Part shown: in pieces, positions 1-16,720 of the stretch
How positions within the stretch are numbered: the first letter of the stretch is position 1
Layout: the number at the start of each line of letters is the position of its first letter
Origin: Candidatus Bathyarchaeota archaeon B24
GTDB lineage: Archaea; Thermoproteota; CALKCG01; B24
Direction of reading: 5' to 3'
Assembly (NCBI GenBank): GCA_001593865.1
Contig: LUCB01000002.1
Location: 25,277-89,276, forward strand
DNA: 64,000 nucleotides
Notes under the pieces: generated by a model
Database searches by the model: none
Told to the model about the DNA's origin: nothing
The model's input: the letters and a program-made list of their open reading frames with translations, nothing else
Made by a program: the position numbers and the translations under genes

Positions 1-1321
1 GCTTATCTACGCCGTCTATAAGGAGTTTTTCCCAGACCTACAGTATAAGCCGAGCGATGAGGAGCTAGATATACTTGGGAGGCTTCTAGCCGAGATCTTC
101 AGACCCCCGAGGTCTTGGGTGAGCAAGGTTAGAGCCGTTGCGTCTATACTTTTAAGAGCTAAGAGGCAGGGACGTAAAAAGTTGCTTAAGGAGCCGTATA
201 GGAGCCCTATAGGCTTCGGCTTCATCCCGCTGATCGAAGACGCGTACCCCGATTCCATCAGGAGAATAAGTCAGGTCTTAGGGACGATCGAGGACCGTAA
301 GGAGGCTAAGGTTTTCTACGAGATGTGGATAAGGCCTAGGTCCGATGAAAAACGCTTGAAAAAAGCGTTAAGAAAGCTCGATGACAAGCGTAAGACTAGA
401 GAGCCTACCGAGGAGACTAGCGTAGAAGACAGTAGACCCGGTAAAACGGTGGCCGGTAAGGGTCTGAGAAGGATTCGCTTACCCACCGAGTTGAGTAAGC
501 TTCTGAAAGGCTCGGCTTTGAAAGACGACGACATCTTGTGGAGAAGGCTATGGTATAGGTCTAGGGCTGAGAACATAATAATCGCTTACTTAGCCTCCCG
601 CGGAGAAGTCAAGCCGACTTGGGCTATAGCGAGCTATCCTGAGGAGTGGTATGTCGAAGACGACATAGAGGTGTTGGACTTAGAGGCGAGTCTGGATGAG
701 GGGCCGCTGATACCTGAGGTCACGACGGTTAAGTGGCATATGAGGTCTGTGGGGAAGGGGCTCGAAGTCTATACGGGTTTTGTACCCTCCGTCCTCGTGG
801 TCTTAGATTCAAGCTACAGTATGACCAGGGTTTTCGATAAGGCGGCTACCGCGGCTTTCATAGCATATCTCAGCGCTAAATGGGCCGGTGGAAACACGGC
901 TGTCATAAACTTCTCGGCCAAACACCTCGTAGCCGGTTGGGATGCCGAGGATGAGCTTAAGGAGATCGTTCTATCGAACCGTTTCGGCGAGCTTACGATA
1001 ATGCCTACCCATTCGATAGCAGAGCTTCTGAAAGAGCTTAGGGAGCCTTGCTTCATAGTCATCATAACGGATGGAGGATGGCAGAACTTTAAACCGGCTC
1101 TTAAAGACCTAGAAAGGCTTGGCGGTAAAGGGTATAAGATAACGGTCTTCTATATAAGAGACTGGAAATACCCCGATGAGGTTAAGATGCTTGTGAAAAG
1201 CCCATACATAACTCTGTACCCTGTCGAAGACCCGGTCAGAGACTTGGAAGGATTAGTTTTATCGGAAACCATGGGTATCTACGAGGGTAAGCTTAGACCG
1301 CTAACCCTAGCCGCCGGTTGA
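1..1321 (+). CDS. von Willebrand factor type A (vWA) domain protein, 5'-truncated by the window edge; charged K/R/E-rich N-terminal region
   Basis: The reading frame is open from nucleotide 2 with no stop before the annotated GTG at 119, so the gene starts upstream of the window. MIDAS-like DxSxS motif (VLVVLDSSYSMTR) in the C-terminal half. Confidence 0.6.
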   Translation, partial: LIYAVYKEFFPDLQYKPSDEELDILGRLLAEIFRPPRSWVSKVRAVASILLRAKRQGRKKLLKEPYRSPIGFGFIPLIEDAYPDSIRRISQVLGTIEDRKEAKVFYEMWIRPRSDEKRLKKALRKLDDKRKTREPTEETSVEDSRPGKTVAGKGLRRIRLPTELSKLLKGSALKDDDILWRRLWYRSRAENIIIAYLASRGEVKPTWAIASYPEEWYVEDDIEVLDLEASLDEGPLIPEVTTVKWHMRSVGKGLEVYTGFVPSVLVVLDSSYSMTRVFDKAATAAFIAYLSAKWAGGNTAVINFSAKHLVAGWDAEDELKEIVLSNRFGELTIMPTHSIAELLKELREPCFIVIITDGGWQNFKPALKDLERLGGKGYKITVFYIRDWKYPDEVKMLVKSPYITLYPVEDPVRDLEGLVLSETMGIYEGKLRPLTLAAG

Positions 1322-3845: not shown

Positions 3846-4844
3846 ATGTCTAGACGTTTAGCCGTCGGGTTTATAGGATGCGGAGGTATAGCCAGAGCCC
3901 ACGTCGATAACCTCGCAAGACTTAATAGGGTGGAGCTTAAGGCGTTCAGCGATATATCCATCGATAGGGCTAAGGCCCTAGCCTCAACCTACGGTGGAGA
4001 GGCCTACGCAGATTGGAGGGAGATGCTTGAAAAATCTAAGCTCGACCTCGTCTTTATATGCCTACCCCCGTTTGCGCATAGGGACGAGGTGATGGTTGCG
4101 GCCGAGAAGGGAATACACATATACATCGAGAAGCCCATAGCCCTAGACATCGAGCTTGCTAGGGAGATGGCTAGGGCCGTCGAGAAGTATGGGGTTAAAA
4201 GCCAAGTAGGCTACCAACTGAGGTTTGCAGCCGGGGTGGAGAGAGCGAAGAGGATCATAGAATCCGGCGAGGCCGGCGCCATAGGGTTGGTTAACGGGGT
4301 CTATTGGTGTAGGTTTATCAGACGAGACTGGTGGATCGACAGGTCTAAGAGCGGGGGTCAGATAGTCGAGCAGTCTACCCACCTATACGACATTTTGAGG
4401 TGGCTATGCGGAGACGTGGAGAGGGTCTATGCGGAAATGGATAGACGATTCTACACCGATGTAGAGGGTATGACCATAGAAGACGTGAGCAGTGTGATGA
4501 TGAGGTTTAAATCCGGAGCCATCGGAGTCGTCTCTTCGACCATAGGAGCCGCCCCGGGATACTGGTGGCTGAGATGGAGCATAGTAGGACGTGACGCTAT
4601 GCTGGAGTCAGAAGACCCCAACCATCTGAGAATCTACTGGAGCGGTAAAACACCATTCACCATTGAGGAGCATAAGGAGCCTTCAAGAGCGCCTATGGCT
4701 CTGGCGGAATTGGACCTCGTGAACGCGATCCTAGAGGATAGAGATACGAGAACGCCGATATCTGAAGGGGTGAAAACCCTAGAGTTAACGCTTGCCGCCG
4801 TAAAATCGGCTGAGACAGGTAAACCGGTTACGCTACCTCTTTGA
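3846..4844 (+). CDS. Gfo/Idh/MocA family NAD(P)-dependent oxidoreductase
   Basis: N-terminal Rossmann motif GFIGCGGIARAHV, EKP motif, 332 aa. Confidence 0.8.
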   Translation: MSRRLAVGFIGCGGIARAHVDNLARLNRVELKAFSDISIDRAKALASTYGGEAYADWREMLEKSKLDLVFICLPPFAHRDEVMVAAEKGIHIYIEKPIALDIELAREMARAVEKYGVKSQVGYQLRFAAGVERAKRIIESGEAGAIGLVNGVYWCRFIRRDWWIDRSKSGGQIVEQSTHLYDILRWLCGDVERVYAEMDRRFYTDVEGMTIEDVSSVMMRFKSGAIGVVSSTIGAAPGYWWLRWSIVGRDAMLESEDPNHLRIYWSGKTPFTIEEHKEPSRAPMALAELDLVNAILEDRDTRTPISEGVKTLELTLAAVKSAETGKPVTLPL

Positions 4845-6384
4845 CCTCATCCTCCGTCGAACGGCCTACCAACCCCATCCTTTCCCAAGCGACTTTAGCT
4901 ACTACGCTTGTTTTAGCCGGGTAATCCCTCACGTCGACTTCGACTGTGACCGGGAACGGGACGGGGGACGCCATACCCCATATCAAAGCTTCATGGTCTG
5001 CTAAACCGGGGAGATAATCAGCCATCCGCTCGCTACCATACTCGGAGTATTTTATTATGGCCTCCTGGTCGTTACCGGCCATAAGCCTGAACGCGGCTAT
5101 CGTGTTACACTGCGAGATCACGGATTTAGAGACATAAGCAGGTCTCTGGGTAACCAGTATGAAGCCTACGTTGTATCCTCCTGCTTGACTTATGGCCTCT
5201 ATTATCTGCTTATCCACACCCGTCTTCTCCGGGCTTCCGACCTCTATCTTAAGACCCCTCTCAGGTATGAAATACTGAGCCTCCTCTATGACGAATATAA
5301 CCGCGAAGTCCCCGGCTCTCCTATGCTCTACAGCATAATGCATTACGTTCCTTATGATATACTTAGCCGCAAGCTGCTGATCCTCTATGTTCGCGTCGAC
5401 GGAGAAGTCCACTATAACCGCAGGATTCCGGTAGACCGTTTCTATTATGTTTAACGGCTTATGCTCTATCCCGAACAATTGACTCCCACGCTTATCGAGA
5501 ACCCACCTGATCTTCGCGAGCACAGAGTCCCTCCCCCTAGAGAGAAGATAAGGCGAGATCTCGACGCATTTCCTAAGGACGTTTTTAACCGTAAGCTCCA
5601 GCCCCTCCGCCCTTATGGAGTTCAAAGCCTCGCATAAAAGCCTACCATCGCTCCTCCGAGGGTCCAAACCCAGCCTGGAAGCGACAAGCTCAGGAGACAC
5701 AAGCTCCGCCCTAGGCACAAACCTGAAATAAGGAAGCATAACCGCACCATACTTAGTCAACAAGCTATACTCACACCGCCTATCGAAAACTATAAACCTA
5801 GGCTTAGGCTCCTGCTCCAACGACCTAGCCATAAGGTTCAACACAAAAGTGCTCTTCCCTGACCTTGTCATTCCTGCGACGAACATATGTCCCTTTGCTA
5901 TCGCGTTTAGGTCTAAGTAGAAGGGCATGTCTAGTCCCCTATGCCGTCCTATCTTCACCGGGAAGTCTGTTCTATCGATCAAACGTCTACCTGAGAGTTT
6001 CAGGAAGAAGCCTTTCAACTCCTCCTGGTTCGGTTCGTATACCGAGTCCCATGTATTCGGGCTGCATTCGAGCCTCCTCCATTTCCCATCCCAGGAGATG
6101 TAGCCTAAGACCTCCGCCCAGGCCACCAGGTATTCGAGCTTCTTCCCATAGTATGCTTTCTCACCCTTCTTACCGGCTATGGGTCCGAAGCTTCCCACGG
6201 TCATCTCAGGATTATAAGGCGTTATCTTGTGAACCCTCAGCAAGACGGGGTTGAATTCTCCTACAGGGCTTAAGGGGTGGTTGATGAAGTAGTAGCCGTT
6301 TACATAGACCTCCGCGTCCTCCATGACGACGAAGGAGACTCTGTTTTGATTGCAGCCAGATAACACATAGCCTATCTGCCTCAA
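4828..6384 (-). CDS. herA: HerA-like FtsK/HerA-superfamily ATPase
   Basis: Walker A GMTRSGKST. Walker B FVIEEAQYF. VTQRP sensor motif. N-terminal beta-rich (HAS-barrel-like) region. 4-nt overlap with the upstream NurA-like gene. Confidence 0.75.
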   Translation of the reverse strand: MRQIGYVLSGCNQNRVSFVVMEDAEVYVNGYYFINHPLSPVGEFNPVLLRVHKITPYNPEMTVGSFGPIAGKKGEKAYYGKKLEYLVAWAEVLGYISWDGKWRRLECSPNTWDSVYEPNQEELKGFFLKLSGRRLIDRTDFPVKIGRHRGLDMPFYLDLNAIAKGHMFVAGMTRSGKSTFVLNLMARSLEQEPKPRFIVFDRRCEYSLLTKYGAVMLPYFRFVPRAELVSPELVASRLGLDPRRSDGRLLCEALNSIRAEGLELTVKNVLRKCVEISPYLLSRGRDSVLAKIRWVLDKRGSQLFGIEHKPLNIIETVYRNPAVIVDFSVDANIEDQQLAAKYIIRNVMHYAVEHRRAGDFAVIFVIEEAQYFIPERGLKIEVGSPEKTGVDKQIIEAISQAGGYNVGFILVTQRPAYVSKSVISQCNTIAAFRLMAGNDQEAIIKYSEYGSERMADYLPGLADHEALIWGMASPVPFPVTVEVDVRDYPAKTSVVAKVAWERMGLVGRSTEDEVKEVA

Positions 6385-7529
6385 ACGCCCTCACCCTCAA
6401 GACCGTCGAGCCCGCTGTTCAAAACCCAGCTCTCCCCGTACTCTAAGAGAAGCAGGTCTAGGTCCTTGAGCTCCATCTCCCCTCTTTTGACGAGCTCTAA
6501 GGCTTTAGAATAGAGTACGAGTGAATGTACGTTAGACGTCGGACGCGTTATCCTCGAAAGCCTATCTGCTTCATGAATCGGATACGGTATACCGTTTAGA
6601 CCAGCCATGGTCCATACGATCGACATCAGCTCCTCAATCTTGTCCAAGCAGAACAGTGGAATTTCGACCCTAAACGGCATAGACCCTGTCTTGACGTAGC
6701 TGGAGTATATCACCGGTAGAGTGGAGCTGTAGCCTAGGTCCTCGGCGACCGCTTTGTAGGACTGTGTGATCTCGTTCTCGACCCTAAACGGCTCCGAGTA
6801 CTCTCCCTCTCGGAGTATAAAGTTCATCAATATAGAGTCTCTTATCTGAGGGTTCTTGGTATACGACGTGTAGAAGCTCATATGCGTGCGTTTCACAAAC
6901 CCTAGGACCGGCACCTTGAACTTTCTACAGTTCTCTAGAAGCTCAAGCACCGTTATGACCGTGAAGTAGAAGTCCCCTTCATACTGAGGTGAGGTTTTAA
7001 ACCCGGGGTATAACCTCGGGTTGAGGACTATCCCCCCGTCCAGCAGCAGGTAGTCCGGCTTCCACCTTTCGACGGCTTTAGACGCCACGTGGTATTCCAA
7101 GGCCATGTGAAGCAGGCTTTCACGCTTATCAGGGTCGACTTCAGACGTCCATAGATCAGGTGGACCGGTTACGCATAGAGGCTCCTCTACTATGCTCCAG
7201 TTTTCAACCAGAACCGCTACCGCACCGTATAGAGGGATGTATGCGAACTTATACTCTGTCCCGTTTCTACCAGCGTCTACACCCACTATCCTAGACGATG
7301 CCGGTCCATCCTCGTCATACATGGCTTTGTAAACCTTAACCCTGCCTCTGAGGTCGTCTATAAGTCTATGTATCTCCTTCCTATACCTCCTCAGCCTGTC
7401 TAGGAGAAGTTCCGTTCCCTTGTCGATAAGCTCTTGGTACAGCTTGATGTAGGGCATCTCCTTGAGCCATAAGGCTGCCCTCAAATTATCTTGGTCATTG
7501 CTTGTTGAGGGGGAAACGCTTATATCCAT
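6381..7529 (-). CDS. nurA: NurA-like nuclease
   Basis: Acidic motifs spaced as NurA D/E/D catalytic residues (GVDAGR ... HMALEYH ... LLLDGG). Gene order nurA-herA with overlapping stop/start. Confidence 0.6.
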   Translation of the reverse strand: MDISVSPSTSNDQDNLRAALWLKEMPYIKLYQELIDKGTELLLDRLRRYRKEIHRLIDDLRGRVKVYKAMYDEDGPASSRIVGVDAGRNGTEYKFAYIPLYGAVAVLVENWSIVEEPLCVTGPPDLWTSEVDPDKRESLLHMALEYHVASKAVERWKPDYLLLDGGIVLNPRLYPGFKTSPQYEGDFYFTVITVLELLENCRKFKVPVLGFVKRTHMSFYTSYTKNPQIRDSILMNFILREGEYSEPFRVENEITQSYKAVAEDLGYSSTLPVIYSSYVKTGSMPFRVEIPLFCLDKIEELMSIVWTMAGLNGIPYPIHEADRLSRITRPTSNVHSLVLYSKALELVKRGEMELKDLDLLLLEYGESWVLNSGLDGLEGEGV

Positions 7530-7574
7530 GCAATCACCAACGTTAGTTAGGGAGGAACCACCTTATAAGTGTTG

Positions 7575-7596
7575 TTGTTGATTGTTCAATCAACAA
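7575..7596. promoter_or_regulatory. Perfect 22-bp palindrome TTGTTGATTG-TT-CAATCAACAA in the divergent promoter region between nurA-herA and the wHTH paralogue array
   Basis: Read directly: 10-bp arms are exact reverse complements. Sits 12 bp upstream of the 7608 start. Confidence 0.7.
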
Positions 7597-7607
7597 AGTG
7601 AGTACAG

Positions 7608-8006
7608 ATGGAAAATAGGAAGGTTAAGATACGGTTGAAATACCGTGGAGTAGAGGCGGAGATAGAGTGTGAAGAAGACCAGCTTAGAAAAGCCGTGGAG
7701 GAATTTCTCACAGCCTTCCAGAACGTCCCTATCAGCGAACGTGAGCCTGTTAAGCCGGAGGGTAAGGAGGTTAGGGAAATACCCTCTACTTGCAGAGGGG
7801 TGATTCTCAGCCTATGGCGGGAAGGCTGGTTTAGCGTAGGAAGGACTTTAGCCGAAACCCATGAGGAGATGAGTAAACGTGGATTCCACTACGATAGGAC
7901 AGCGGTGGCTCACATGCTAGCAGACCTCGTCAGAAGCGGGATACTCTACCGGGAAGGTAAGAAAGGTAAGTATAGGTATTACCAGAAACGCCCTCCCGTT
8001 ATGTGA
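7608..8006 (+). CDS. Small putative DNA-binding protein with C-terminal winged-helix; shortest member of a 4-gene paralogue array
   Basis: N-terminal strand motif KVKIRLKYRGVEAEIECEED shared with the three downstream paralogues. C-terminal wHTH-like AVAHMLADLVRSGILYREGKKGKYRYY. Confidence 0.5.
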   Translation: MENRKVKIRLKYRGVEAEIECEEDQLRKAVEEFLTAFQNVPISEREPVKPEGKEVREIPSTCRGVILSLWREGWFSVGRTLAETHEEMSKRGFHYDRTAVAHMLADLVRSGILYREGKKGKYRYYQKRPPVM

Positions 8007-8046
8007 AGATGGAAAGGAGCCTTTATCGGGAATATTGAAAAAATTC

Positions 8047-8137
8047 ATGGAAAAATCCATAGAATTCGCTCGCTTGTGTTTACCCTGTTATTCCCACGGA
8101 TTTATACCACGGATTTCTTCCATAGATTTTTATGGAA
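8047..8137. repeat. Cluster of short inverted and direct repeats in the 219-bp intergenic region upstream of the 8226 operon
   Basis: ATGGA-AAAA-TCCAT (8047-8060). Direct repeat CCACGGATTT x2 (8094-8103, 8107-8116). TTCCATA-GATTTT-TATGGAA (8118-8137). TCCATAGA and ATGGAAAA each occur twice. Confidence 0.6.
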
Positions 8138-8225
8138 AATATCTGGGTTAAGAGTTTTTATGTTTGGGAACCTGAGGGAATAGGTATAAGCTTATATACA
8201 AGTTGGTCTAAATTCTTTTACTAGA

Positions 8226-8768
8226 ATGAGCGGTGTTAAAGCGGTTTTTCAGACGTGGTTCGGTTCGCTAGAGTTCGAGTTTTCAGATTCTGAGGAGCTT
8301 AAGAGAAAGCTTAGACTCGTCAAGGCCATAGTGGAAGAGGCTTCTGCGATGGGTCTCGAAGGAATGTTGAGGGTTAAACAGGTTCTGGAGGCTGACCGTA
8401 GGTCGAGGGTTCTATACATTCCGGAGAAGGGATCTGAGGTGCCCAACCTCTTAGAAGGAATAGTTGAGCTAAGCGTCGACGGTCCTGTGATAGTCGCTCC
8501 TGAGAAGGCTAAGTTGAGCCAGTATGAGGCTATAGGTCTCGTGTTGTATGCTTCTGAGGGACAGATATCCGACCCTAAAACGATAACTTTACTACTCCGT
8601 AACTCTGGAATCAAGGTCTCGAACACCTCAGCTAGGCTTAAAGAGATGGCTAAAACCGGCAAGGTGTTCAAACCCAACCCGAAGGAGGCTCTATGGAAGC
8701 TTTCAGCCCAAGGCCAGCTTTGGGTCGAGAAAACGATACTTCCCAAGCTTAGGGAGGCCACCTTATGA
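8226..8768 (+). CDS. Paralogue 2 of the small wHTH family
   Basis: VKAVFQTWFGSLEFEFSDSEEL N-terminal motif. C-terminal region alignable to paralogues 3 and 4. Stop overlaps the next start. Confidence 0.5.
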   Translation: MSGVKAVFQTWFGSLEFEFSDSEELKRKLRLVKAIVEEASAMGLEGMLRVKQVLEADRRSRVLYIPEKGSEVPNLLEGIVELSVDGPVIVAPEKAKLSQYEAIGLVLYASEGQISDPKTITLLLRNSGIKVSNTSARLKEMAKTGKVFKPNPKEALWKLSAQGQLWVEKTILPKLREATL

Positions 8769-9253
8769 GCCAGCTGAGGGTTAAAGTCTTCTTCGAGGGG
8801 GGAGCGGCTGAATTCTCAGGGACGGTCGAAGACGTCGCAAGGGGATTTCTGAAATTTCTCATGGAGCTATATCCAGAGATTAAGCTCGTTAGGAACTTGA
8901 GCTTAAGTCTAGACCTTGAGGAGGTTTCAGAAGCCCTTAAGGGCTTAATCGCTATTCATCCGGAGCCTGTTATACTGGTCGATACCGGTAGCTTAACCGT
9001 TTCAGAGAGTTGTCTCTTAGCGTTGATAACTAAGTATCTGGCCTATATGTTCGGTAAATCTGATAAGCCCTCGGCGTCTCTGGAGGAGCTGTCTAAACAG
9101 CTAGCTAAGTCTAGGAAAACGCTTAGCGCTAGGTTAAGTGAGCTTCTAAACAGGCAGCTGGTCGAGAAGCTCGAGAGAGGAGAGTATAAGATTACTTTGA
9201 AAGGGTTGAATACCTTCATCTCAGATGTCGTCCCGAAGTTCAGGGGTGGGTAG
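8765..9253 (+). CDS. Paralogue 3 of the small wHTH family
   Basis: VKVFFEGGAAEFSGTVEDV N-terminal motif. wHTH LSKQLAKSRKTLSARLSELLNRQLVEKLERGEYKITLKGL. Clear pairwise similarity to the 9256 gene. Confidence 0.55.
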   Translation: MSQLRVKVFFEGGAAEFSGTVEDVARGFLKFLMELYPEIKLVRNLSLSLDLEEVSEALKGLIAIHPEPVILVDTGSLTVSESCLLALITKYLAYMFGKSDKPSASLEELSKQLAKSRKTLSARLSELLNRQLVEKLERGEYKITLKGLNTFISDVVPKFRGG

Positions 9254-9255
9254 TA

Positions 9256-9735
9256 TTGAGCGAAATAGAGGTTAGGGTCAAGTTAGGTGAGATGGAAACG
9301 TCGTTTACAGGTAAGTTGGATGACGTTATGGAAGCCGTCTTTGAGTGGCTTAGCAAGGTGTACCCGGCTTACGAAGCCATTTCCAAGATAGTGTATGAGC
9401 CGAATCTCGATAGGCTTATGAGAGAATGTTCAGACCTCTTGACGATAACGGAGGGGGGTATAATACTTAGGAAAACGGGTTTAACCGCAGAGGAGGCGAT
9501 AACGCTGAGCCTGGTGGGTGCTTATATAGGGTTCAGGATAGGGAAGTTAGAGAAGGAGTGTATGACACCGGCTGAGCTTTCTAGGACCACGGGTAAGGCT
9601 TTGAAGACGATATACAACACTTTAGCCTCCATGGTGAAACAGGGACGAGTGGTGAGGGAGAGTGGAGAATATAAGCTTACAAAGCTTCATATCGCGAAGT
9701 TCGTCTTCGACCTACTGCCTAGGCTTAAGGAGTAG
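9256..9735 (+). CDS. Paralogue 4 of the small wHTH family
   Basis: VRVKLGEMETSFTGKLDDV N-terminal motif. wHTH LSRTTGKALKTIYNTLASMVKQGRVVRESGEYKLTKL. Confidence 0.55.
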   Translation: MSEIEVRVKLGEMETSFTGKLDDVMEAVFEWLSKVYPAYEAISKIVYEPNLDRLMRECSDLLTITEGGIILRKTGLTAEEAITLSLVGAYIGFRIGKLEKECMTPAELSRTTGKALKTIYNTLASMVKQGRVVRESGEYKLTKLHIAKFVFDLLPRLKE

Positions 9736-10462
9736 ACGACTGCCCTATCTGACGGATAACCTTCATCGTCTTCCTCCTTATAACCGTGTGTATGGTATTG
9801 AGAAGCCGCATGATATCGTCGCGCTCCTTCTTTATACCGATCCATCTGTTGAACATCTTACTCAGCGTCACCATCCAGGTGATGCTCTCAGGCTCCTCGT
9901 AAAACGAAGCCATCCCTTTAAGCAAAGCCGCCTCCTGAGATGCGAAAGGCTGAAACATGACAGGTACAGATAACAGAGATATGGTGAGTGACCCAGGTTT
10001 AACAGACCTCACAAGCTCCATCACACGCTTACTCCTGTTAAGCTCCTTAGAGAGACTATCGGATATCTTGAAACCCGGTATTACCTTCTCGAGCTTGCTT
10101 AGGATGGGTTCCGGAGCGAAGTAGAACCTTTTACGTATAATTCCCTTACTATAGAGCCTACACTCCATAGGCTTAAGTTCTCTATAGACCTTGGCATACA
10201 ACTCGTTCATATCACCCTGGGTAACACAGTCCCAAACAGCCGTCATGATCCATACCCTGTCGAAGAAGCCCACGACCCTAGATTGGAATATTATCCTGTC
10301 AAACCTCGTCTTAGTTTTCTTAGGCTCGCAAACTATGACGCCGCCGCTATATCGCTTCCACTTCTTCATATAGTCCTCGAATAATTTAAGCGGGAAGGGG
10401 TCTCCTAGGGAAAACGTACTCTTTCTCCTACGTTTTTTCTTCTTAGCCTGGGTCAAACCCAT
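9725..10462 (-). CDS. Hypothetical protein, basic N-terminus
   Basis: Long ORF with no internal stops and no recognisable motif. Co-directional with the upstream Zn-ribbon gene. Confidence 0.4.
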   Translation of the reverse strand: MGLTQAKKKKRRRKSTFSLGDPFPLKLFEDYMKKWKRYSGGVIVCEPKKTKTRFDRIIFQSRVVGFFDRVWIMTAVWDCVTQGDMNELYAKVYRELKPMECRLYSKGIIRKRFYFAPEPILSKLEKVIPGFKISDSLSKELNRSKRVMELVRSVKPGSLTISLLSVPVMFQPFASQEAALLKGMASFYEEPESITWMVTLSKMFNRWIGIKKERDDIMRLLNTIHTVIRRKTMKVIRQIGQSSTP

Positions 10463-16512: not shown

Positions 16513-16599
16513 GCCGGGGTTGCGGAGCGGACAAACGCGCAGGCCTTGAGAGCCTGTGGGCCCTCCGGGCCCTCGTGGGTTCGAATCCCACCCCCGGCG
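16513..16599 (+). tRNA. tRNA-Ser (anticodon TGA), class II with long variable arm
   Basis: Acceptor stem GCCGGGG/CCCCGGC. Anticodon stem CAGGC/GCCTG with loop CTTGAGA (anticodon TGA). Long variable hairpin GGGCCCTCCGGGCCC. T-loop GTGGGTTCGAATCCCAC. Discriminator G. CCA not encoded. Confidence 0.85.
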
Positions 16600-16720
16600 C
16601 ATCTCTGTGAACCCGCGGTCTCTTTTAAAAACTTAGAGCCTTAGAAGCCTTGTGGGACGGCGTTCATGACTATTTAATGCTTGGGTAGGCTTATATCTAT
16701 CCCGTCGAATACTTTACGTT

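Follow-up and report, generated by a model that had tools for sequence, protein, structure and literature searches.

Four small open reading frames (ORFs) follow one another on the plus strand of the stretch of DNA analysed here (64 kb in full, hereafter the window): g1 (7608..8006, 132 aa), g2 (8226..8768, 180 aa), g3 (8765..9253, 162 aa) and g4 (9256..9735, 159 aa, with a TTG start). An initial annotation of the locus had reported them with these lengths, within 7608-9735. Judging by their substitution pattern, the four ORFs are real genes, because each is under purifying selection, with dN/dS values of 0.06-0.08 relative to the orthologous locus L008 (0.08 for g1). An antisense ORF of 170 aa within g2 (8249-8761) was rejected as a shadow ORF; it is the plus-strand frame that is conserved as protein and under purifying selection.

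A spacer of 219 bp separates g1, which forms its own transcription unit, from the g2-g3-g4 operon, of which g2 is the leading gene. Stop/start overlaps had been described at both junctions of this operon. This holds for g2/g3, where an ATGA sequence (8765-8768) places the g3 start over the g2 stop, but not for g3/g4, where the TAG stop (9251-9253) and the TTG start (9256) are 2 nt apart in the window; the orthologous g3 and g4 genes of relatives such as L008 overlap by 8 nt. A Shine-Dalgarno-like GGGAGG (8752..8757, plus strand), read from the sequence, lies 7 nt before the g3 ATG and is the basis on which g2 and g3 are predicted to be translationally coupled. A similar element, AGGGGTGG (9242..9249, plus strand), precedes the g4 start and was likewise read from the sequence.

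Divergently from g1, on the minus strand, lies a nurA-like nuclease gene (6381..7529, 382 aa as called; Pfam NurA, 3.1e-19), followed downstream by a herA-like ATPase gene (4828..6384, 518 aa; Pfam DUF87/HerA, 8.5e-13) that overlaps it by 4 nt. The array had been placed directly downstream of nurA-herA, a description that the opposite orientation of the pair contradicts.

A paralogous two-domain protein family

Profile comparison identifies the products of g1-g4 as true paralogues, in agreement with the initial annotation, which had noted a shared N-terminal motif and a C-terminal winged helix-turn-helix (wHTH) segment; the resemblance goes beyond chance. In pairwise comparisons, BLASTP connected g3 with g4 (E 3e-20, 28% identity over the full length; profile comparison, probability 98.9%), while g1 against g2, g3 and g4, and g2 against g3, were not significant. 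With broad profiles, hhalign aligned the g2 type with the family over its full length (99.7%, E 6e-27) and the g1 type (96.3%, E 1.8e-9) collinearly across the N-terminal hairpin/helix and the wHTH, the two parts by which alone g1 matches the family. When the family HMM was run on 316 ORFs of the window, these four genes were the only matches (4e-55 for g4, 3e-54 for g3 and 8e-26 for g2). The non-significant BLASTP pairs could suggest that the N-terminal similarity is spurious and that four unrelated families have only a generic wHTH in common. We regard this as hardly credible, as the collinear profile-profile alignments, the reciprocal matches of the g1 and g4 HMMs within the window and the presence of intermediate sequences (P0143 and the g1-like proteins of L037 and L012) all argue against it.

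Each of the four proteins combines an acidic N-terminal beta-hairpin/helix module, with a strand-turn-strand-helix motif common to all, and a basic, PadR/MarR-like C-terminal winged helix. The charge split occurs in 4/4 proteins (pI 4.6-5.5 for the N-module and 9.6-10 for the wHTH half), whole-protein values being 6.6-9.3. An AlphaFold2 model of g3 (pLDDT 92.5, from a 106-sequence alignment) has beta strands at residues 4-10 and 13-19, three helices, further strands at 62-65 and 67-70, and a wHTH at 79-160. The N-module comprises ~75 residues in the order beta-beta-alpha-alpha-alpha-beta-beta; the C-terminal half is a wHTH domain, with a three-helix bundle and a beta-hairpin wing that can be superposed on solved wHTH domains. 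In g1, a beta-hairpin and helix (~residues 5-36) are joined by a linker to a strongly conserved basic wHTH (~residues 60-125) bearing the motif GFHYDRTAVAH, and the middle segment of g2-g4 is missing; g2 carries an additional insertion following the N-terminal hairpin. Proteins of the g2/g3/g4 type (~160-180 aa) match the family profile over their full length. The profile is marked by an N-terminal hairpin with F-x-G-x-P-[DE]-E-V, a Y-P helix end, an E-G hairpin, the wHTH and a C-terminal I-L-P-K-L-K helix. No solved structure, Pfam model or curated relative matched the N-module. We also considered that it might be a degenerate wHTH duplicate and rejected this on sequence grounds (N half against C half, hhalign probability 1%).

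The family had gone unrecognized in the initial annotation, and indeed no curated family in Pfam, NCBIfam or PADLOC covers g1-g4. All Pfam wHTH matches of g1 were sub-threshold, and none of the Pfam MarR, PadR and TrmB models was matched at its cut-off. None of the four proteins matches MarR (PF01047/PF12802) at E<=1; of 64 family members, 5 reach E<=1e-3 with MarR_2, the best of them with E 2.3e-5. Scores below cut-off were obtained for g4 against TrmB (20.8 bits; cut-off 25.6) and for g3 against HVO_A0261_N (19.5 bits; cut-off 35) and HTH_24 (17.1 bits; cut-off 21.9). The closest known proteins are PadR-s2/AspA-type and MarR-type regulators (AF_1382, 2qvo; SSO2273, 2x4h; AspA, 5k5o; MarR, 5h3r). 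Unlike MarR, the present family lacks the N-terminal dimerisation helix (alpha1) and has a beta-hairpin/three-helix/beta-hairpin module in its stead, and it differs from all of these regulators in occurring as four fixed paralogues rather than as a single homodimer. The Csa3/CARF-wHTH CRISPR-associated regulators are likewise built of an N-terminal module that does not bind DNA and a wHTH at the C terminus, and it is the wHTH of Csa3/CARF3/CasR that g3 and g4 match best in PADLOC and NCBIfam. However, the match covers the wHTH only (model positions ~146-216), the N-module is half the size of the Rossmann-like CARF domain and does not match it, and no CRISPR-cas genes were found near the array.

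Conservation across Bathyarchaeia

The four genes belong to an undescribed two-domain protein family found across Bathyarchaeia, for which we infer DNA binding. The set had been thought specific to this locus, yet its four orthologous groups are found again across 56 Bathyarchaeia loci (51 from species-representative genomes), which were gathered with a 4-sequence alignment and are biased towards g3-type relatives. When 175 proteins were clustered, the g1, g2, first-of-pair and second-of-pair proteins fell into exactly separated groups; g3 groups with every first-of-pair gene and g4 with every second-of-pair gene, the two being core members of the family and g2 a divergent full-length paralogue, present in 33 of the 56 loci. 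By these criteria of sequence, the four groups appear to be ancient, non-redundant and vertically inherited. The g3-to-g4 order is fixed and the pair is adjacent in 55/56 loci, while 71 of 79 junctions between family genes (58 of 62 between core, F-type genes) overlap or are <=10 nt apart. An exhaustive HMMER search (E<=1e-3) yielded 348 representatives of the core type at 50% identity, mostly full length. The short g1 type has 1912 relatives (clusters at 90% identity), essentially all from Bathyarchaeia, and a Pfam domain was found in 0/1912.

The wider neighbourhood has a housekeeping character (gatD-gatE, purA). In about half of the related loci, g2/g3/g4 occur without NurA-HerA in the fetched flank (<=8 kb) and follow gatD-gatE instead. 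A conserved gene of ~240 aa lies between g2 and g3 elsewhere; no homologue of it was found within the 64-kb window, and jackhmmer gave no link between it and the 245-aa gene after g4. Fusions of family modules with a Ser/Thr kinase and with DUF488 occur elsewhere, and at locus L065 such modules stand beside an XPB-like helicase, fused to unassigned domains. With the search pattern used, viral contigs yielded no relatives.

The nurA-herA pair and its control region

The products of the window's nurA and herA score far below the NCBIfam equivalog cut-offs. NurA scored 17 bits against NCBIfam NurA_Sulf (cut-off 400) and HerA 43-74 bits against the NCBIfam HerA equivalogs (cut-offs 800-970). Among the models of canonical double-strand break repair (NF040819, NF040937, NF041033), HerA reached 47 bits for one (cut-off 970) and 43 bits for another (cut-off 800). 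HerA also matched the PADLOC models HerA PDLC04105 (3e-31) and mad8, but its score against HerA_antiphage was 74 bits (cut-off 800), and its partner is a NurA-domain protein, not the effector of a Sir2-HerA or DUF4297-HerA anti-phage system. The pair resembles the canonical archaeal HerA-NurA end-resection system in being an overlapping gene pair for a NurA-domain nuclease and a HerA/DUF87 ATPase. It departs from the canonical herA-mre11-rad50-nurA operon in its scores (17-74 bits against equivalog cut-offs of 400-970) and in its neighbours, which are an oxidoreductase gene and g1, not mre11/rad50; a scan of large ORFs in the window found no Mre11/Rad50 genes.

A further difference from the canonical system is the constant presence of g1, the only one of the paralogues that is strictly tied to NurA-HerA. 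In 25/25 loci that show NurA, g1 adjoins it, divergently in 18 and co-directionally in 7, the latter with g1 just upstream of nurA and after the other paralogues. This adjacency is kept even though the NurA/HerA proteins of the window's clade can hardly be aligned with those of other clades; the place by g1 is taken by two very different subtypes of NurA-HerA. We know of no description of a g1-like companion for the canonical HerA-NurA system, and a search of the literature on NurA/HerA with Bathyarchaeota or winged helix found nothing relevant.

The control region shared by nurA and g1 (7530..7607) contains a TATA-like TTATAA (7563-7568). Between this box and the ATG of g1 lies a perfect 10+10 palindrome, TTGTTGATTG-tt-CAATCAACAA (7575-7596), while a third half-site, CAATCACCAA (7531-7540), adjoins the nurA start. 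With one mismatch allowed, CAATCAACAA has three matches in the 64-kb window, all within the 66 bp of 7531-7596. L006, L007 and L008 have an identical palindrome, apart from the two bases of its central spacer. In many other divergent loci the same place after the TATA box is taken by GTTGCGCATGCGCAAC, perfect or imperfect (the perfect 16-nt form in five loci, a 14-nt core in three more), and most have a palindrome at this position whose sequence differs between clades; copies resembling CAATCAACAA are found downstream in other clades as well. Since the g1 recognition helix is nearly invariant while the palindrome varies by clade, g1 may read a shared sub-motif only, or another factor may bind.

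With its divergent gene pair, short common control region and a palindrome that directly follows the TATA box, the arrangement recalls the divergently transcribed local repressors of archaea whose operator overlaps the stretch from TATA box to start, textbook examples being MDR1, Phr and TrmB. Here, by contrast, the regulator family would be new, the target a nuclease/ATPase pair and the operator a putative one. Upstream of the g3-g4 pair in other loci we found no conserved palindrome, just an ordinary BRE/TATA element, which leaves autoregulation of that operon unsupported.

Candidate roles and a conserved g1-g2 spacer

Bathyarchaeia rank with the most abundant of the uncultured archaea that live in sediments, and to our knowledge almost nothing is known of their gene regulation and DNA repair. 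The present analysis defines a protein family that lacks a curated model and has a confidently predicted N-terminal fold, with four apparently ancient paralogues in fixed gene order, one of them, g1, strictly tied to a divergent NurA-HerA pair. The reading that we prefer, and to which we give about an even chance, is that g1 is an autoregulated local regulator of the non-canonical nurA-herA and that the coupled g2-g3-g4 operon specifies a hetero-oligomeric DNA-binding complex. As a dedicated partner of the NurA-HerA nuclease/ATPase pair, g1 would most likely act as a dimeric, autoregulated repressor that binds its own promoter at the palindrome lying between TATA box and start. It would also bind the related half-site at the divergent nurA promoter, and its binding would couple nurA-herA expression to some signal. 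The g2, g3 and g4 genes are read as one translationally coupled operon whose products would most likely assemble in fixed stoichiometry; either the N-terminal modules or the C-terminal helices would make the contacts, and a g3-g4 heterodimer would be the core of the DNA-binding complex. This offers three things for experiment: a putative operator sequence, a candidate repressor and a candidate heteromer. DNA-binding regulators, as suggested in the initial annotation, are the most economical reading, although four class-wide paralogues would be unusual for ordinary local regulators and a structural complex fits at least as well. The loci, roughly half, in which g2/g3/g4 lie away from NurA-HerA count against our preferred explanation.

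Some of the same observations could be read in favour of accessory subunits. The proteins, g1 and perhaps g2-g4, would then not be transcription factors; their wHTH would recognise DNA ends or sites while the acidic N-module docks on NurA or HerA, making them loader or targeting factors in a role taken elsewhere by Mre11-Rad50. The unbroken adjacency of g1 and NurA across two subtypes that share almost no sequence is consistent with this, as are the seven co-directional loci, class-wide conservation under strong purifying selection and the lack of Mre11/Rad50 genes among the large ORFs scanned. We nevertheless consider it rather unlikely: a divergent orientation with an operator-like palindrome over the promoter, as seen for g1, is classic for local regulators, g1 is served by a promoter of its own and lacks translational coupling to nurA, and g2-g4 are often far from NurA-HerA. 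Distinctly unlikely, in our estimate, is an extended form, in which all four proteins are DNA-recognition subunits of a Bathyarchaeia-specific nuclease/translocase machine, docked via their acidic N-modules on the non-canonical NurA-HerA. A four-paralogue hetero-oligomer would direct NurA-HerA to DNA ends or specific sites, as Mre11-Rad50 does elsewhere. This would account for g1 staying by NurA-HerA even after an exchange of subtype, for the class-wide retention of all four paralogues and for the N-module having no known relative, and, if true, would represent a new way of targeting a HerA-type motor.

The chromatin-like role raised in the initial annotation, in which lineage-specific nucleoid-architecture proteins coat or bridge DNA as hetero-oligomers in the style of AspA-wHTH filaments, seems improbable to us. 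It would accord with several paralogues conserved across the class and with the housekeeping neighbourhood, but the overall pI is just 6.6-9.3, the AspA likeness is confined to the generic wHTH, and the tight g1-NurA linkage is left unexplained. We give a similarly low estimate to a defence or conflict system, with the wHTH paralogues as sensor or adaptor modules of a HerA-type ATPase and NurA nuclease effector. The best matches of HerA are to anti-phage models, the NurA/HerA by g1 differ drastically between clades, and the kinase and DUF488 fusions and the helicase neighbour at L065 would suit such a role. These scores are all far under the curated cut-offs, however, and the genes keep a fixed order and a fixed place in the chromosome, by gatD-gatE, throughout the 56 loci; the apparently vertical inheritance of the four groups, the low dN/dS and the lack of relatives in viral contigs with the pattern used also speak against it.

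The g1-g2 spacer (8007..8225) is itself conserved and was aligned with four orthologous loci; the spacer of the window is 74% identical to that of L008, compared with only ~35% identity at synonymous sites of the flanking genes. It contains the inverted repeats ATGG-N6-CCAT (8047-8060) and CCATA-N6-TATGG (8120-8135), direct repeats of CCACGGATTT (8094-8103 and 8107-8116) and, ~30 nt before the g2 ATG, a TATA box (TTATATA, 8192-8198). A search for known RNAs in the spacer gave no Rfam match; its RNA fold has a z-score of -1.25, and RNAalifold, on five sequences only, predicted some wobble-compatible hairpins.

Paralogy and layout of the array

The array comes from B24, a hydrothermal-vent metagenome bin, and the same locus is also present on several public contigs. 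The ORF list returned four plus-strand genes with the coordinates and sizes of the initial annotation: g1 (7608-8006, 132 aa), g2 (8226-8768, 180 aa), g3 (8765-9253, 162 aa) and g4 (9256-9735, 159 aa, with a TTG start). Shine-Dalgarno-like sequences lie on the plus strand ahead of g3 (GGGAGG, 8752-8757) and g4 (AGGGGTGG, 9242-9249). Stop/start overlaps had been proposed at both junctions among g2-g4; that of g2 with g3 is an ATGA, whereas the g3 stop (TAG, 9251-9253) and the g4 TTG at 9256 do not overlap in the window, and g3/g4 orthologues elsewhere overlap by 8 nt. The array had also been placed directly downstream of the nuclease/ATPase gene pair beside g1, but nurA (6381-7529) and herA (4828-6384) both lie on the minus strand, which makes pair and array divergent. 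A 170-aa antisense ORF wholly within g2 (8249-8761, minus strand) is most likely a shadow ORF without coding function. At the 3' end of g4, a convergent 245-aa ORF (9725-10462, minus strand) overlaps by 11 nt; it has no family match in Pfam, NCBIfam or PADLOC, and both the window clade and the related locus L022 keep it together with a DUF2116 gene and a 305-aa ORF.

Compared with their orthologues in locus L008, the four genes each have a dN/dS of 0.06-0.08; synonymous sites are close to saturated. Using BLASTP, g3 and g4 are 28% identical over their full length (E 3e-20) and the g2-g4 match is marginal, while no significant match was obtained for g1 against g2-g4 or for g2 against g3. Five-sequence orthologue profiles gave paralogue signals that were weak, yet collinear. 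With broader profiles drawn from 56 loci, the g2-type matched the family profile over its full length (99.7% probability, E 6e-27), and the g1-type matched it (96.3% probability, E 1.8e-9) across the N-terminal hairpin and helix and the C-terminal winged helix (wHTH), the middle segment being missing in g1. Among the 316 ORFs of the 64-kb window, the family HMM matched only g1-g4, and the g1 HMM reciprocally matched g4. The N-terminal motif and wHTH reported as common to all four genes thus mark true paralogues, and we rejected a reading of the similarity as spurious on the strength of these profile alignments.

Domain architecture and distribution of the family

An AlphaFold2 model of g3, built from a 106-sequence alignment, was confident (pLDDT 92.5). 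Its N-terminal module consists of strands 4-10 and 13-19, helices 21-35, 38-45 and 51-58, and strands 62-65 and 67-70; it is followed by a wHTH (helix 79-95, strand 103-105, helices 106-113 and 117-129, wing 133-143) and a C-terminal helix (145-160). A search of PDB sequences with the family-profile HMM gave the same picture, whereas an HMM of the N-module alone found no credible match, and the N and C halves share no sequence similarity. Charge is split in the same way in all four: an acidic N-module (pI 4.6-5.5) precedes a basic wHTH half (pI 9.6-10). The conserved N-module residues G19, P37 and G68 are located at turns in the model, which suggests that the module may serve structure or interaction rather than catalysis. 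No Pfam, NCBIfam or PADLOC model reached threshold for any of g1-g4, and in 64 family members the matches were confined to generic wHTH models, scattered and each present in at most nine. The family is undescribed; its DNA-binding half, by contrast, belongs to a very well known type.

Searched exhaustively with HMMER, a set of 1.84 billion representatives yielded 348 relatives of the g2-g4 type (E<=1e-3), most of them 160-175 aa long and matched over their full length. The g1-type profile recovered 1912 clusters, essentially all from Bathyarchaeia, all annotated as hypothetical and none with a Pfam domain. The array had been thought specific to its locus; scanning a single genome for each GTDB species instead gave 51 loci, all in Bathyarchaeia, with a search pattern biased by its derivation from four close sequences. 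The same four-sequence pattern found no relatives in viral contigs. One family member is a singleton in Nitrososphaerales, beside a HEPN/nucleotidyltransferase pair.

We also observed family modules in other architectures. Protein P0012 is a Ser/Thr protein kinase followed by two partial modules, each lacking the N-terminal hairpin, and P0065 is a module followed by DUF488. A metagenomic island (L065:1094-5592) carries several modules: a 141-aa short form; a 376-aa fusion of a ~200-aa N-terminal domain (no Pfam match, with a PDG...YELK stretch) to a full module; then an XPB/ERCC3-like helicase; and then a 258-aa protein with an unassigned N-terminal domain and a g2-like C-terminus.

Gene order, the NurA-HerA pair and control regions

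The g3-type and g4-type genes are adjacent in 55 of the 56 loci, 58 of 62 junctions between core (F-type) genes overlap or are <=10 nt apart, and g2-type genes are present in 33 loci. Average-linkage clustering of 175 family proteins separated g1-type, g2-type, first-of-pair (g3-type) and second-of-pair (g4-type) sequences with zero exceptions, and the four paralogues must therefore predate the radiation of these lineages. That each is kept, in a fixed order, speaks for roles that are not redundant and is consistent with a hetero-oligomer. Recurrent neighbours include gatD-gatE upstream of g2 and a ~180-aa protein that weakly resembles DUF523 (2-thiouracil desulfurase family, Pfam PF04463). 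Between g2 and g3, 32 loci (e.g., L017:4756-5475) encode on the opposite strand a ~240-aa protein that starts with a wHTH-like region and belongs to no Pfam family; it occurs in most Bathyarchaeia. In L022 (~6600-7300) its gene lies between g1 and g2; it is absent from the window, which has a repeat-rich spacer at that position instead.

The g1-type gene directly adjoins NurA in all 25 loci with a visible NurA (18 divergent, as in the window, and seven co-directional), and an additional look-up gave the same layout. About half of the loci have no NurA-HerA within the fetched flank (<=8 kb) around g2/g3/g4; strict linkage to NurA-HerA belongs to g1 only. Window HerA scored 43-74 bits against NCBIfam HerA equivalogs with cut-offs of 800-970, and NurA 17 bits against a cut-off of 400; other-clade pairs beside g1 are equally remote from these models. 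Judged by sequence, the pair is non-canonical. The window pair (4828-7529) and that of other clades (L017:7776-10348) can barely be aligned: between them, HerA is 20% identical over 162 aa (E 1e-5) and NurA gave no significant match, yet the adjoining g1 proteins are 41-52% identical. Such a contrast points to either much faster evolution of NurA-HerA than of g1 or subtype exchange at the same position, and the g1-NurA-HerA association is maintained under both alternatives.

The 78-bp nurA-g1 spacer contains a TATA-like TTATAA (7563-7568) followed, 12 nt before the g1 ATG, by a perfect palindrome, TTGTTGATTG-tt-CAATCAACAA (7575-7596). Right beside the nurA start lies a third half-site, CAATCACCAA (7531-7540); when one mismatch to the 10-mer was allowed, all three matches in the 64-kb window fell within one 66-bp stretch. 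The palindrome arms are unchanged in L006, L007 and L008, where only the two central spacer bases vary. Other divergent loci have a different element, GTTGCGCATGCGCAAC, at the same position after the TATA box (perfect in five loci, with a perfect 14-nt core in three more and imperfect copies in several others), often followed by CAATAA/CAACAA-type repeats. A palindrome between TATA box and start is the usual site of an archaeal repressor. The promoter palindrome may be bound by g1; however, the palindromes differ, in contrast to an almost unvarying g1 recognition helix. A TATA-like TTATAT that L006-L008 conserve overlaps the annotated nurA start (ATG GAT ATA AGC, minus strand; 7520-7529). The nurA start or promoter layout as assigned is provisional; a candidate for the nurA TATA box is an A/T-rich box at about 7541-7552.

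The 219-bp g1-g2 spacer (8007-8225) is 74% identical between the window and L008, against ~35% at synonymous sites. It holds inverted and direct repeats and, about 30 nt before the g2 ATG, a TATA box (8192-8198). It had no Rfam match, and its predicted RNA stability was not significant (fold z-score only -1.25). Its plus-strand hairpins keep their pairing through G-U-compatible changes. The spacer could be an operator array, a g1 3'UTR or a small RNA.

Functional interpretation and surrounding genes

In the best-supported reading, to which we give about an even chance of holding jointly, g1-g4 would represent a new family of DNA-binding proteins in which a wHTH is one of two domains, with g1 acting as an autoregulated local regulator of the non-canonical nurA-herA pair, and g2-g3-g4 forming a translationally coupled operon whose products would assemble into a hetero-oligomeric DNA-binding complex. 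The initial observation was largely right, and its interpretation as locus-specific regulators or chromatin-like proteins partly so. That the four proteins instead serve as accessory or targeting subunits of a NurA-HerA machine seems considerably less probable, and a chromatin-like role is unlikely. We regard membership of a conflict system as equally doubtful: the weak anti-phage HerA similarity, the fusions to a Ser/Thr kinase and DUF488, and the L065 fusions, where the partner domains are unassigned and an XPB-like helicase lies alongside, would favour it, but it is at odds with a synteny that is fixed, with vertical inheritance and with the strong purifying selection on the array.

The rest of the window is housekeeping (alaS, a class II/III-type RNR large subunit, ilv/leu genes and malate/lactate dehydrogenase), and this gene content indicates that the setting is chromosomal and not mobile. 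A single tRNA is present, tRNA-Ser (anticodon TGA; 16513-16600, plus strand). A 400-aa ORF (119-1321, plus strand) has no Pfam match at E<=1e-3 and includes the residues VLDSSYSM, which recall a vWA MIDAS motif. Frame and start at this site differ between the ORF list and the gene calls of public contigs (L001, L002), which give a 400-aa product with a weak AAA_5 match and then a 585-aa gene, suggesting a MoxR-type ATPase/vWA pair.
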